The notes under the pieces were generated by a model, which saw nothing but the letters and a program-made list of their open reading frames with translations, did no database searches and had not been told where the DNA came from. A stretch of 64,000 nucleotides of DNA from Eledone cirrhosa (taxonomy: Eukaryota). The stretch lies in contig OZ024741.1 in the NCBI GenBank assembly GCA_964016885.1, positions 65,968,001 to 66,032,000 of the forward strand, written 5' to 3'. The translations under genes were made by a program, and so were the position numbers. This document shows positions 1,190 through 52,999 of the stretch, piece after piece (position 1 is the first letter of the stretch; every line of letters starts with the position of its first letter).

Positions 1190-2226
1190 AAGATCAAAAA
1201 ATGGTTAAAGGAGTTCCATGTATTTTATTATGCGCATTTCAAAAACAAACATCATCATGCAATAATATTTGTGTTTTCATCAGATAAAACAGGAGGACAT
1301 GATATGAAGGCTAAAAAACACTTGTGGATAGTGCAGTTTTAAATCAACATATGAAAAGTAGTTTTAGATTGATGTGTGATATTGGGAAAAATATTTTATT
1401 TAGAGAGGGGGGTGGAAAGGATGAAAAAAGGGGAGGAGATGAGAGTGAAGGTGGAGAGGGAGAGATGGGTGATAGAGAGAAAGAGATAGTTTTTATAACT
1501 GAGAGAAGATATATTGTTTTACATAGAGAGGTTGAGAACCGTTGGAAGATAATGTATAAATTAAAAGAGTTTGAAAATTAACGAAGGGAAAAATATGTAC
1601 GAGGAAAAAGTATTTTATTTAGGGAGGGGGGAGGATGAAAAAAGGGGATGAGATGAGAGTGAAGGTGGAGAGGGAGAGATGGGTGATAGAGAGAAAGAGA
1701 TAGTTTTTATAACTGAGAAAAGATATATTGTTTTACATAGAGAGGTTGAGAACCGATGGAAGATAATGTATAAATTAAAAGAATTTGAAAATTAACGAAG
1801 GGAAAAATATGTACGAGGAAAGAGAGGGAGTTGATATGTATTGAGATTAAAAAGTTTGAAGATAGAGAGAAAAAATAATAATTGCGGATGAATATTCTAA
1901 CGTCAAAAAAAAGGTGTATGTTTATAAGTATTATGGCAATTTCAAAATTAACGAAGAGAAAAAAATTATTAAGGTTTGTGTGTAGAAGGATTTGAGAAAA
2001 ATAATGTGAAGTTAAGGTTTGTATATTGAAGGAATTGATAATATGTGCGAAGAAATGCACATAATAAGATGCGCAAAATGAAATACGCATAATAAAATAC
2101 ATGGAACTCCTTTAACCATCTTTTGATCTTATATATTATGTATACTCCAATCCTACAAACTGTAGAGTGCTTCTTATCCGATATCTGCATTGCTTTATTG
2201 TACTACAATAAAACTCACCTCCTACA
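1190..2226. mobile_element. PLE family A non-coding two-armed insertion (minus arm 1190-~2050, plus arm ~2080-2226)
   Basis: Matches the 3' UTR of the intact elements at 11382-15362 and 30041-34668; flanked by (TA)n on both sides. Confidence 0.9.
1222..1290 (-). ncRNA. Type I hammerhead ribozyme (family A)
   Basis: Minus strand: gttttat CTGATGA [AU-rich stem II] t GAAA tgcgca TA ataaaat; stem III is the palindrome ATGCGCAT. Confidence 0.8.
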
Positions 2227-3919
2227 TATATATATATATGTATATATATATATATATATATATATATATATATATATATGTGTATATATATATATATATA
2301 TATGTATATATATATATATATATATATATATATGTATATATATATGTGTGTATATATATATATATATATATATATATATATATATATATATATATATATA
2401 TATATATATATATACATATACATATATATATATATGTATATATATGTATATGTATACATATATATATATGTATATATGGAAAGTTATATTTAAATTGTTG
2501 GGTTACAACTAGTAAATATTTATAACTGATATAAAAGCACTCGACAAATATTTGGAGGAAACAGCTGTAAGCACAATAATGTTTTGAACAGTTCTTTGAT
2601 TCTTATATTTCATATAACTGCTCTGTAAATCATCTGATGTTTTTACATTGAGCTACTTAACTTACTGGTAATAAGGTAGTAATACATTACTGCCTACCAC
2701 TATTTAGGGTGTGTAAAATGCTTATAACTGCATAAGGTTTTGTATTTACATAACCATAAATAGTATAACTAATACTATATGTATATATATATGCATATAT
2801 ATATATGTATATATATGTATATATATATATGTATATATAGTAATAATAATAAAATTGAAGACTAAAATCCAAAGAGGGCTCGATAAGGAAAATATATATC
2901 AGATATATAAGAACCGAAGAGCAAATATTTATTAAAATAACAGATTAAAGTTTAAGCAAAGAATTGCTGCTTAACGGGATCTTCTGAAACTAACAAAGTC
3001 AATCTGTAAACGCAGAACTGGATATTTCAAAAAACGTTGCAACAGGAAAAAGACAGGAAGACGATACTTTGGTTCATGGTGACGTTCGCTGGCAAAGAAC
3101 GGGAAAAAACGAATAATACGTCATTAATAGGAGCGGTGAAAAACAATTACGCGCAAAGACAGAACCACGTTTATGGTATAAAAGAGGTCGTAGACTAATG
3201 TTCTCTAAGTGGTGCATAGAGACGTTCTCTGGCAATGAACGAAAAAACCGAAGATAATAAGTCATATGTGGAGCGTGGAGAACAATAGCACGCAAAGACA
3301 AAACCACGTAAATGGTATAGCAGAAGTTGTAGACTAAAATTCTAACTAGGAGACCGAATGAATCTCCGCTACAGAGTTAAGAACAAAGTAAATAAATACA
3401 ATACAGAAGTAATAGAAACAAATAAATACATACACGCAAACAGATACGTACATACACAAGCATACGCAAAACCTTACCATAGGTATACAAAACCACGCAC
3501 ATATAAATATGTGTATGTGTGTATGCTTGTGTACAAATAAATAAATAATTATATAAACGTATATAAGTAAATAAATACGTATATAACAAGCGCACACACA
3601 TACCTACAAATAAATACACGAAGGTTCGGAGACGTAAGTCAACTAAAACAAGAAGTACACATATACACACACCCACCATACGTACGAACCTGCATACTCA
3701 CGCAGACGCAAAACTCCCATATACACATAACCAAACCCTAAATACCAGAATATGTAAAAATTATACGCCATAACAGTCAAATATACGTACGAGAAGGTAT
3801 ACATATCTTCACAAAACATACGGGTAATATATATTTACCTATGCAAATAAGTAAAGGAATAAACAAAACATATACTTAGCTCCCACATCAAGACGTAAAA
3901 TATCCACGTATAGATCGTG

Positions 3920-5737
3920 CTATCCGTTAGGGTATAACGTGGGGCTGTAATACAGAAAGGTTTTGTGCAATTTATGTTTACAAGCCGAAATTGCCTCAGA
4001 TTTTTTGTTTAAGATGTGGTCTGTGGCGTAGAGTATTTCCAGGGCCTCAGCGGCGCAGAGGTCACATGGTCTTTTATTTCCGTTATACGATCTAGCCCTA
4101 GCTAGGATCTCCCAGTGTAACTTATATTGGGTGTGGTTGTCTTTTAGACTCCAGATATAAGCTGAAAGTGACGTCATATTCCTTCTTAGAGGGTAACGAA
4201 AAGAATGGGTATGCATGTAAAGACGCTGCTTGAAACTATTGGCGGTTAACCCTATGTAGGCCCTACGGGACGTGGGTGTTACAACCTTACATTTGTAGAC
4301 AATGTTACTAGAGAGGCATTTCCCGGATAGGGAATTACAGTTAGTACTAACTACAGGGTTGCACGTGTTCCTACGGCTAGGTAGTTTAGCTAAATTTGAA
4401 GCTGTGATGTTATGTGCAAGGTTAGGAGTCGTAGAGTAAGAAATTTTAATAGTGTTTCTATTAAAAATTTTACTATATTTATGTGTAGGGGGAAAATGCT
4501 TCGTAATAAGGGAAAGAAAGATCTTAGCTAATGGTGTGGCCACCTCCATATTATATGGTGGGTTAAACCAACAAATGCGACGGGATCTATTTCTTCTAGG
4601 TCTATTCCCGTACTCTGCATATGCTACCTTATCAACAAATCCACTTCGAGCAAGAGCTTCATTGTAATAAGTGGAATGGTCGTTGAAAATGCGCTCGTTG
4701 GTGGAAAGACGGGAAAGCCTCAACGAAACGTTTTTTACCAGGTTCTTGGTTATGCTGTCAGGATGGTTGGAATGCTTACTTATGTAATTAAGCGTATCAT
4801 TCGGCTTTCTATACGGGTAATACAACCCATTCAATAAATTGAGAGTAACGTCGAGGTAATTAACGACTGAGAGATTGGCCTCAACCTGTATAGAGAGGTT
4901 GAAGCCTTTAAAGAAGGCTGTGAGTTCTTTTCTGAATCTGTCGCAAGCACGAGGTCCGCACTTAGTCATCGTCAAAAGACCATCGTCACGGTACAAACCA
5001 CCGCCCGCGTTGGGGAATTCGTCCTTGATAGAGAAAAGAAGGAAAAGGCCAATAAGATCAGTAACCTCCGCAGAGTCACTGGCGCCCATACTCACGTCGA
5101 ATGGGGTACTATTGGATTTTTTAATCTAAATAGAGTCGTCGAAATTGATCACCGACTTTCGGGCATTAAGGATGACATCAACTTCGAAATCCTTAACCAC
5201 TGTGAGTGTTTTAGCGAAATTGATAGCTCTAAGGAGAAGTGGTAAAGTGATGGAGGAGTAGTAATTGTTGATATCGAATTGGATAAAACGGCAATGTTCC
5301 TTGTTACATATGCCGTTGAACCAATCAATCACCGCGAAAGAATTGTTCCACAGTGCGAGAGGGGCCAAACTTCTAATTTCAGGTATAATTCTATCAAGAA
5401 TCGTTTTACTAAGTCTACCTAAATCGGACTTCGTGGGGTTAATAAGCCGAATAGAGGGGTTGTTCGGAAAATTGGATTTGTGATCCTTCAGGGTAAAGTG
5501 GGGAGAGATAGGGTCCAGAGGTTCGGTCCGGTCCAGGATGTTGAGATCAGATGTGATTTTAAACCCAGCATCGTTGATTTCATTAATGACACACCGATTA
5601 GTTTTACGGTAATCCTTAGTTACAGCATTATATAGTAGTTGATGGTAAGTACTGCGCTCCACTTGATATAGGTTGCCAGTTTTGTCGGAATGGACGTGCA
5701 CGGCGTTAGAATCCTTAATAGAACGAATTCTATTCTT
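3920..5737 (-). pseudogene. PLE reverse transcriptase + GIY-YIG endonuclease (family B), single in-frame stop
   Basis: ORFs 5126-5761 and 3920-5095 share a frame; TAG at 5126-5128 aligns to a Trp in family A. Motifs SDKTGN, QFDINNYYSSI, MGASDS, YRDDG, YLDV, IVYKC..YIGLT..FKQR..H, CDLC. Confidence 0.92.
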
Positions 5738-5962
5738 CCAGAGAACGTCTCTATGCACCACTTAGAGAACATTAGTCTACGACCTCTTTTATACCATAAA
5801 CGTGGTTCTGTCTTTGCGCGTAATTGTTTTTCACCGCTCCTATTAATGACGTATTATTCGTTTTTTCCCGTTCTTTGCCAGGGAACGTTACCACGAACCA
5901 AAGTATCGTCTTCCTGTCTTCCTCCGGTTGCAACGTTTTTTGAAATATCCAGTTCTGCGTTT

Positions 5963-6038
5963 ACAGATTGACTTTGTTAGTTTCAGAAGATACCGTTAAG
6001 GGTGAAAGCAGCGATTCTTTGCTTAAACTTTAATCTGT
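5963..6038 (+). ncRNA. Hammerhead-like motif with variant core CAGAAGA (family B, second copy)
   Basis: Same fold as 981-1056; stem II t-acc gttaag ggt. Confidence 0.55.
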
Positions 6039-52172: not shown

Positions 52173-52232
52173 TTATATATATATATATATATATATATAT
52201 ATATATATATATATATATATATATATATATAT

Positions 52233-52712
52233 ATCATCATCATCATCATCACCGTTTTACGTCCATTCTTCCACGCTAGCATGGGTTAGACGAGTTGTCC
52301 TGTTGTGGGCAGTGTCTGGTCGGCTGACCATGCCTTGCTCATACAGGAACTGGTGCCACACAGTAATACAGAAGACCCGACTTCTCACGAGTACAAGCCG
52401 AGGCTGAAGCATATAGACAATATGCTGCCACCCCCTCCCGCTGCAAAGTAGTCGTGGAGGTGTCACGACACTAAAGCACCCAGCCCACACTATAAAGTGG
52501 TCATGTAGACGCCACAGTAAAAAAGCACCCAGCACTCACTGTAAATGAGGTTGGTGTTAGGAAGGGCATCCAGCTGTAGAAATAAGCCAAAATCAGTTCC
52601 TATATGAGCAAAACAAGGTCACCCGACTTGGCATTACCCACAACAGGACAACCCGTCTAACCCATGCTAGTGTGGAAGAATGGACGTAAAACGGTGATGA
52701 TGATGATGATGA
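52233..52712. mobile_element. Head-to-head pair of RTE subfamily-2 3' ends
   Basis: (cat)n-caccgttttacgtcc.. on the left, ..ggacgtaaaacggt(gat)n on the right; junction ~52352. Confidence 0.8.
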
Positions 52713-52903
52713 TATATATGTCCTGCAATGAACAGTTCAAGGAGAGAAGGAGAGAGGCAGACAGAAAAAGATATGGGAGGACAACATCCCAGAAGATGAG
52801 AGGAATGGAAGGAGCTGGTTGCCAGGTCATCTGTGGCACCCCAAACAGTCCACCTGACTATGGGACAGATGAGATGAGATATATATATATATATATATAT
52901 ATA

Positions 52904-52999
52904 TAACGAAGGATATGTGGTAAGGAACCAGATGGACCATAACGTAGAAATTGCCGTCGACACGGCTTGAGGTCTGCCGTCGGAGTTAAACATTTTCAT
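52904..52999. mobile_element. Family E two-armed mini
   Basis: Left minus long end (ccttcgtta), right plus short end (cattttca). Confidence 0.7.

Follow-up and report, generated by a model that had tools for sequence, protein, structure and literature searches.

The question raised by this locus is why insertions of several repeat families consist of two oppositely oriented arms, one of which stops at a short terminus and the other at a longer one. The locus is a stretch of 64,000 nucleotides from Eledone cirrhosa (GenBank assembly GCA_964016885.1, contig OZ024741.1, positions 65,968,001 to 66,032,000 of the forward strand), which is referred to as the window. It contains insertions of six families (A, B, D, E, F and G), of which A, B and E are, judging from their protein motifs, Hydra-type Penelope-like elements (PLEs). 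A preliminary description of the window had proposed that each integration involves two target-primed reverse transcription events, primed internally at two preferred sites of one template, and that the pairing of a short (S) with a long (L) end is a rule rather than an occasional rearrangement. The latter was borne out, since S and L ends were combined in 154 of 160 classifiable pairs. Coupled priming at two sites of RNA from one source is the explanation favoured here.

Self-comparison and direct reading of the window showed that the insertions are composed of two opposed arms between (TA)n tracts, with the 3' ends facing outward. The coordinates and ends described before were checked, and the architecture is present genome-wide. 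In family A, counted from the predicted cut of a hammerhead ribozyme, the S end lies at +40 (GATCTTA) to +52, the L end CTCCTACA at +133 and the ATG at +213, so that the two end positions given previously are correct. The first copy of this family combines an S-end arm (1190-2078, minus strand), which comprises the 3' untranslated region (UTR) and a pseudo-long terminal repeat (pLTR) without tail and has its S end at 1190 facing (TA)n, with an L-end arm (2079-2226, plus strand) beginning about 12 nt upstream of the hammerhead cut. In the second copy, the S-end arm (11382-15216, minus) holds an open reading frame (ORF) for 800 amino acids at 15058-12659 and is followed by an L-end arm at 15216-15362 (plus). 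The third copy possesses an S-end arm at 30046-30259 (minus), which is 99.6% identical to its own pLTRs, as had been noticed for 30041-30259, and an L-end arm at 30246-34668 (plus) with the order pLTR1, ORF, 3' UTR and pLTR2 and a unit of 3910 nt. A minimal type I hammerhead motif, read by eye, is located in this arm at 30564-30632 (plus; predicted cut after 30625). The ORF therefore occurs on either arm, as had been claimed: it belongs to the S arm in 11382-15362 but to the L arm in 30041-34668. The fourth copy is a mini-insertion (40406-40577) with an L arm (minus) and an S arm (plus), both beginning at about +6. From left to right the four copies read S+L, S+L, S+L and L+S. An older, one-armed family A copy with a short-type end lies at 23773-23899 (minus).

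The other families are organized likewise. The family B insertion (L+S) consists of an L-end arm at 2840-5737 (minus), to which a Hydra-type reverse transcriptase (RT)/GIY-YIG frame with one internal stop belongs (5761-3923), and an S-end arm at 5738-6052 (plus). Family D (S+L) has an S-end arm at 9537-9673 (minus) and an L-end arm at 9674-11073 (plus) with a hammerhead core near 10825-10870, and family F (L+S) has an L-end arm with hammerhead at 21164-21488 (minus) and an S-end arm at 21489-21538 (plus). Family E is represented by insertions at 21737-21901 (L arm minus, S arm plus), 51770-51964 (S arm minus, L arm plus; previously placed at 51772), 52000-52172 (S arm minus, L arm plus with a small deletion; previously 52002) and 52904-53001, in which the L arm (minus, +59 to +99) and the S arm (plus, -36 to +20) have no sequence in common. 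All four are of the S+L type, and so is an insertion of a diverged E-like subfamily at 20956-21095, read by eye, with the short end on the left and a long-type end on the right. Two of the 14 insertions cited as short plus long did not conform. In the family G insertion (16623-16704, previously 16623-16709), an S-end arm (plus) is combined with an arm stopping at -17, within the hammerhead, whereas genuine long ends of this family lie at +81 to +94. In the family E insertion at 43838-43999, an L arm (plus) is combined with an arm ending about 30 nt upstream of the cut. The assignment holds for the remaining 12.

For the genome-wide count, three samples were used. For the first, 40 stretches surrounding A copies with an ORF were taken, as well as 30 loci for each of B, D, E, F and G; they were chosen by sequence upstream of or spanning the ends and hence independently of the end type. 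The second was 600 kb of unselected DNA together with the window, and the third consisted of 48 loci selected by their junction pattern. The count leaves out copies whose second end fell into N or beyond the retrieved DNA, and the sampling of top matches is biased to young copies. The 3' ends of microsatellite-flanked arms were sharply bimodal in all six families, with an S-to-L tail of 87 nt in A, 85 in B, 141 in D, 79 in E, 128 in F and 66 in G. Automated pairing yielded 129 head-to-head pairs, from which nine with an unclassified end were dropped. Among the other 120, 115 were S+L (62 SL, 53 LS), two S+S and three L+L, and ten of the 115 are copies cited in the preliminary description. The S+L type prevailed in each family (A 30/31, B 18/19, D 13/13, E 33/36, F 7/7, G 14/14), as well as in all eight pairs from unselected blocks outside the window and in 13 of 14 by-catch copies. 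The junction-picked loci gave 39 S+L pairs, one S+S pair and eight unresolved cases. Altogether, S+L pairs are in clear excess over S+S and L+L, both orders are about equally frequent, and random pairing of the termini, which would have spoken against the proposed rule, is excluded (p~1e-38 against an expectation of 50%). The equal terminal inverted repeats of a miniature inverted-repeat transposable element (MITE) or another terminal-inverted-repeat DNA transposon were not found, as the ends are offset by 66-141 nt in the 154 S+L insertions and the centres are variable.

Three of the exceptions (L050, L084 and L210; three of five in the automated set and three of six overall) possess mirrored flanks and probably arose by another route. 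These loci are inverted duplications centred within the element, or assembly fold-backs. Small one-armed copies ended about equally often at either site (15 S, 16 L and one other among 32, a few of which are of low complexity or duplicated). By contrast, all five ORF-bearing A copies that have a resolved 3' end but no detected inverted arm (L033, L036, L041, L055 and L059) end at the short site. In contigs, pLTR and tail (30500-30760) reached about 100-fold the depth of the ORF start (30765-30900), which indicates that family A consists mostly of short units without ORF. Two further structures were observed in family D. In the long arm at L219/L220, +55 to +154 is missing, a gap that opens within the tail and closes just before the short site, and the arm resumes upstream of it. 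In the block C1 (199452-199647, region of L160), a family D fragment (-104 to +42) abuts a family B short end (-7 to +36) in the same orientation, possibly owing to a template switch between families.

Both arms of an insertion derive from one source. In alignments in sense orientation, an arm was closer to its partner than to the median other arm in 65 of 89 cases, equally close in 15 and farther in nine (p 9e-10), and doubleton alleles fell within partner arms in 19 of 76 cases compared to 1.7 expected. Families A, D, E and G show this signal clearly. In family D, tail haplotypes accompany the matching upstream haplotype even though the arms barely overlap (L192 and L200 versus L205). The GTTCTTA variant of the mini-insertion at 40406 is indeed common to both of its arms; it had been regarded as private, but its occurrence in another copy (L064) identifies it as a subfamily mark. 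One mutation in family B was present in 18 of 18 arms selected by the query and in none of 19 other arms. An apparent discordance of the B arms at one site was traced to query selection. The absence of the selected mutation from the other arms also shows that conversion between arms is inefficient after insertion.

This inefficiency, as well as the divergence of about 1-10% between arms that are unequal in a fixed way, makes it highly implausible that the two-armed units result from assembly errors, from inversions after insertion or from the copying of a few two-armed masters. It is true that the mirrored flanks at L050, L084 and L210 show such events to happen and that no read or contig among those listed crosses the window junction at 30259/30260. 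The junctions of the long A copies are all distinct, mostly with an overlap of 0-8 nt, and short overlaps or small inserts occur elsewhere; such differences from copy to copy argue against copying from a two-armed master. Moreover, raw reads run into (TA)n at both ends (263 at 30671; 339 and 1191 at 30759-60), and short-read contigs hold many different inversion joints. The inversions are thus very unlikely to be artefacts of the assembly, which the preliminary description had named as a possible objection.

A second explanation starts from a single target-primed cDNA that folds back and copies itself. The other outer end would be set during resolution, by an endonuclease cut or by TA annealing, and central deletions would render the arms unequal. 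Self-priming was proposed earlier from palindromic junctions (PMC3846280), and the tail was ascribed to resolution by the endonuclease (PMC8557442). Strict pairing and shared variants require no extra assumption under fold-back, and both snap-back inserts and short palindromes with a symmetric junction are frequent. In 11 of the 115 insertions, however, the entire L arm is situated downstream of the S end of its partner, and the two arms have no common sequence (13 were listed; L048 and L220 were removed, owing to an L arm that lies within a tandem or continues past a deletion). Each of these, and each of the non-nested insertions such as window 1190-2226 and L037, would need a large one-sided deletion. 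The even split of the one-armed copies indicates that the short end forms without a second arm, and both sites are starting points of reverse transcription on RNA in vitro for another PLE (PMC11167929). Disjoint arms, one-armed copies and in vitro start sites together favour two primings, and fold-back appears rather unlikely.

The 5' ends of the arms point in the same direction in part. They heap at YYA-type sites, which we take to be initiator-like. In the third family A copy this site is TC-A-TATG (30497-30506, plus; A at 30500, corresponding to -125), a hot spot of arm 5' ends and the inferred transcription start, and it is also a hot spot of joints in the contigs. Of 30 unselected E arms reaching the site, 28 stop within 8 nt of it. 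A G on both arms was found at this position in 349 E, 137 A and 111 B junctions, compared to C/C 101 and A/A 7 in E, A/A 1 and T/T 32 in A, and C or A 9 in B. Long E copies have T at the same position in 997 cases and G in none; the extra G is therefore non-genomic. CAGAA inserts of family E are the sole centres needing an extra C, and in a few junctions with the centre CG both arms are of full length plus G, which leaves neither a loop nor the space for a hairpin that fold-back demands. Untemplated 5' G in L1 and SVA was interpreted as copied cap (PMC4859970), and Penelope has an internal promoter with initiator (PMC2377424). The hammerhead cut was considered as the usual 5' limit and was rejected, as most arms extend beyond it. 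The 5' end of the L arm is downstream of that of the S arm in 27 junctions and the reverse holds in seven. Stalling of the long arm at the short primer was considered as the cause, but the later start of the long arm already explains the offset. In two insertions, a direct target duplication of 13 nt can be seen. Folding of the tail RNA was no better than in shuffles in A (z=-0.52) and E (z=+0.49). Among the sequences listed as carrying the element, none was an RNA.

G on both arms and the disjoint arms could also be explained if two cDNAs, from one or two RNAs of the same locus, both started at the long site and one was cut back to the TA-rich short site by the element's own endonuclease before joining. 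This view gains from the location of S ends in TA-rich stretches, their scatter over about 10 nt in A (+40 to +52) and the occurrence of rare L+L insertions. Nevertheless, exactly one arm would have to be trimmed in about 96% of the events, other TA-rich sites of the tail are rarely used (two ends at +69 in B), and for the anole element the short site is a direct start of reverse transcription in vitro (PMC11167929). Trimming is accordingly considered improbable.

Coupled two-site twin priming, with RNA from one source as template, is therefore the preferred model, with a probability of roughly 0.6; it is deduced from the structures of the insertions. In the self-complementary (TA)n, the GIY-YIG domain would nick the two strands at positions about 13 nt apart. 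Priming via a few TA-like bases would then follow, by one target 3' end at the S site and by the second at the L site, 66-141 nt further 3'. Strict pairing would result if both sites were filled in a coupled fashion, e.g. by a pair of RT subunits that sit on one RNA element, while left and right would still be random. Each cDNA would extend to drop-off or to the 5' end of the RNA, the template often being an uncleaved and probably capped RNA transcribed from the pLTR promoter. Finally, the cDNAs might be joined at their 3' ends via short microhomology or snap-back inserts, and repair would fill the remainder. The near-strict pairing, the longer tails and the evidence on RNA 5' ends together favour this model over fold-back or trimming. 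The two internal target-primed events proposed in the preliminary description are in accordance with one source, fresh junctions and disjoint arms, but the near-symmetric junctions and snap-back inserts of many short copies fit fold-back copying of one arm as well.

Several observations weigh against coupled twin priming. The heap of 5' ends is weak in B (6/22) and A (3/9), and junctions with G on both arms are a minority in E (349 of 4494). The commonest centres in A (CATG) and B (CAG) are explicable by snap-back without a cap. In short copies, 18 of 52 junctions are symmetric within 3 nt, and templated snap-back inserts, which fold-back predicts as well, are common; they imply that cDNA ends can fold on themselves. 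A stricter test for target duplications was not significant overall (3/115; shuffles mean 1.1, maximum 5; shifted control 11). A looser test (24 compared to 9.9 in shuffles) had to be discounted, as both flanks come from one microsatellite. Two L+L insertions (L072 and L167) have unrelated flanks, and a doubtful S+S insertion (L328) has no mirrored flank. No excess similarity of partner arms exists in B and F (mean rank 0.46 and 0.54); in B, the selection of arms with a rare mutation by the query lowered the statistic and explains part of this. Finally, one RNA and two RNAs of the same locus are indistinguishable here.

More tentatively, and somewhat below even odds, a single complex, probably a dimer, may hold one capped and uncleaved RNA and carry out obligately asymmetric twin priming at both ends of a double-strand cut in (TA)n. 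If this is true, the tail is the spacing between two RT sites, the inverted unit is what the cycle normally produces and not a rearrangement, and this mode of target-primed reverse transcription is distinct from that of LINEs (long interspersed nuclear elements) and R2. Irrespective of the mechanism, a near-strict rule in six families constrains the models: the ends are coupled, have a common source and are not chosen independently. Family A is suited to separating the models because of its young copies, open ORFs, defined target and two mapped sites. For annotation, the thousands of hairpin-like repeats of 200 bp in this genome are PLE insertion products and not MITEs.

The assignment to the PLEs rests on motifs in comparison to PMC8557442, as searches of the A and B proteins in Pfam and PDB gave no significant match. 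Family A has two open ORFs for 800 amino acids with YRDD and IYE..YFG..R..H..E..N motifs, and aligned relatives are 28-38% identical. The ORF at 30838-33240 (plus) encodes an RT (YRDD) as well as a C-terminal GIY-YIG-type endonuclease with Hydra-type motifs. Family B shows the same RT and endonuclease motifs with one stop, and its protein is 40-45% identical to that of A; the families, described before as unrelated, are unrelated in their DNA only. A PLE-type ORF is located between the pLTRs of family E in L329 and L330. F is probably Hydra-type, too; L244 is the one locus in which an endonuclease C-terminus was found upstream in the same orientation. No PLE ORF was found for D (1.9-kb tandem unit) and G in the stretches examined, and both may be non-autonomous. 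All six families carry hammerhead-like motifs, and D, F and G are probably of the same kind as the others. PLTRs formed by partial tandems plus an inverted 5'-truncated copy are present. Hammerhead motifs (CUGANGA..GAAA..NUH) were read by eye in A, D, F and G. In E (L075 and other long copies) the motif has TTGACAA for CTGANGA, U3:A8 instead of C3:G8 and a long stem II, and the hammerhead-like core of B is deviant (CAGAAGA); Rfam revealed no hammerhead in the window at the gathering threshold.

Besides the six families, the window harbours GIY-YIG fragments (Pfam PF01541) of other PLE types at 44-433 (minus) and 38870-39178 (plus), the former adjoining a family B short-end arm (428-1067) head to head. 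A multi-copy LINE with RT and PHD finger, which we take to be RTE-like, occupies 27529-29956, 36677-37961, 40617-41328 and 44512-46086, and some of its copies show L1-style internal inversions (e.g. 27529-27942 versus 28234-28653). A perfect tandem array of 48 bp (eight copies, 99% matches) is located at 22807-23192.

In LINE-1, 5' inversions reportedly arise by twin priming, as Ostertag and Kazazian described in 2001: two target 3' ends are used, and the cDNAs are joined head to head with microhomology. There, the first primer is at the poly(A) end and the second anywhere, the pieces barely overlap, and the inversion is occasional. In the Eledone families, by contrast, two fixed internal sites are used, the arms mostly overlap in the template, and the pairing is near-strict.

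Closer systems are found among the PLEs themselves. Almost all members of the Hydra clade insert into (TA)n (PMC8557442). Like this clade, the present elements have DKT instead of DKG (SDKT in A and B), hammerheads and (TA)n targeting; family A has the linker CxCX5C (CNCRIKNKC), one Cys in the GIY-YIG core, no CCHH, and CxxC and CxH around E and N (CNLC..E..N..CLH). In the window copy of B the second linker Cys is missing. Unlike the clade, to which it is likened by motifs, A has RWT in place of the N-terminal motif RWK, which is present in several relatives, and a unit of 3.9 kb compared to generally <3 kb. It also differs by an Asn-rich stretch of about 60 residues inserted ahead of the linker (residues ~605-675, window about 32650-32870), which is absent from relatives; such inserts were described in Penelope elements of Adineta (PMC3846280). 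The Naiad/Chlamys type, with an N-terminal endonuclease and no canonical hammerhead, does not apply to these elements, whose endonuclease sits at the C-terminus and which have a hammerhead motif.

The canonical unit of endonuclease-containing (EN+) PLEs comprises an inverted 5'-truncated copy and a tail, often at one end only and typically of 30-40 bp, in (TA)n targets (Craig et al. 2021, PMC8557442), and according to Arkhipova et al. (2013, PMC3846280) one of the two inverted pLTRs may carry the tail but need not. A one-ended tail on an inverted unit was already regarded as typical, so the preliminary description understated the published record. The asymmetry is described there, in the parts quoted, without a count, compared to 154 of 160 here; the tails here are 66-141 nt, and the inverted arm is sometimes the longer or ORF-bearing one. 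The origin of tandem and inverted PLE insertions was named an open problem (PMC8557442). For Poseidon of the green anole (Frangieh et al. 2024, PMC11167929), reverse transcription in vitro starts at two internal sites of uncleaved RNA, both strands are cut and extended, a dimer is predicted, and the tail is the sequence between both sites; the later steps of integration are left unvalidated. The architecture, (TA)n targeting and two internal start sites with both strands extended in vitro are therefore already known.

Pairing of short and long arms is not addressed in the consulted part of the bioRxiv retrozyme paper, and the literature searched, which mostly excluded subscription papers and did not include Fig. 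S2 of PMC11167929 (genomic ends), contained neither a pairing count nor a twin-priming model for PLEs. The near-strict pairing, the tails of 66-141 nt and the 5' heaps of both arms at an initiator-like site with a cap-like G were likewise not found there. Poseidon resembles the Eledone families in two internal start sites bounding the tail and in AT-rich targets. As far as the quoted text of that study goes, however, the two sites were not linked to the two arms of one insertion and no pairing was reported, and they lie inside the start of the ORF, whereas here they are upstream of the ATG. The pairing of a short and a long end is thus real, general and stricter than the wording of the literature implies.

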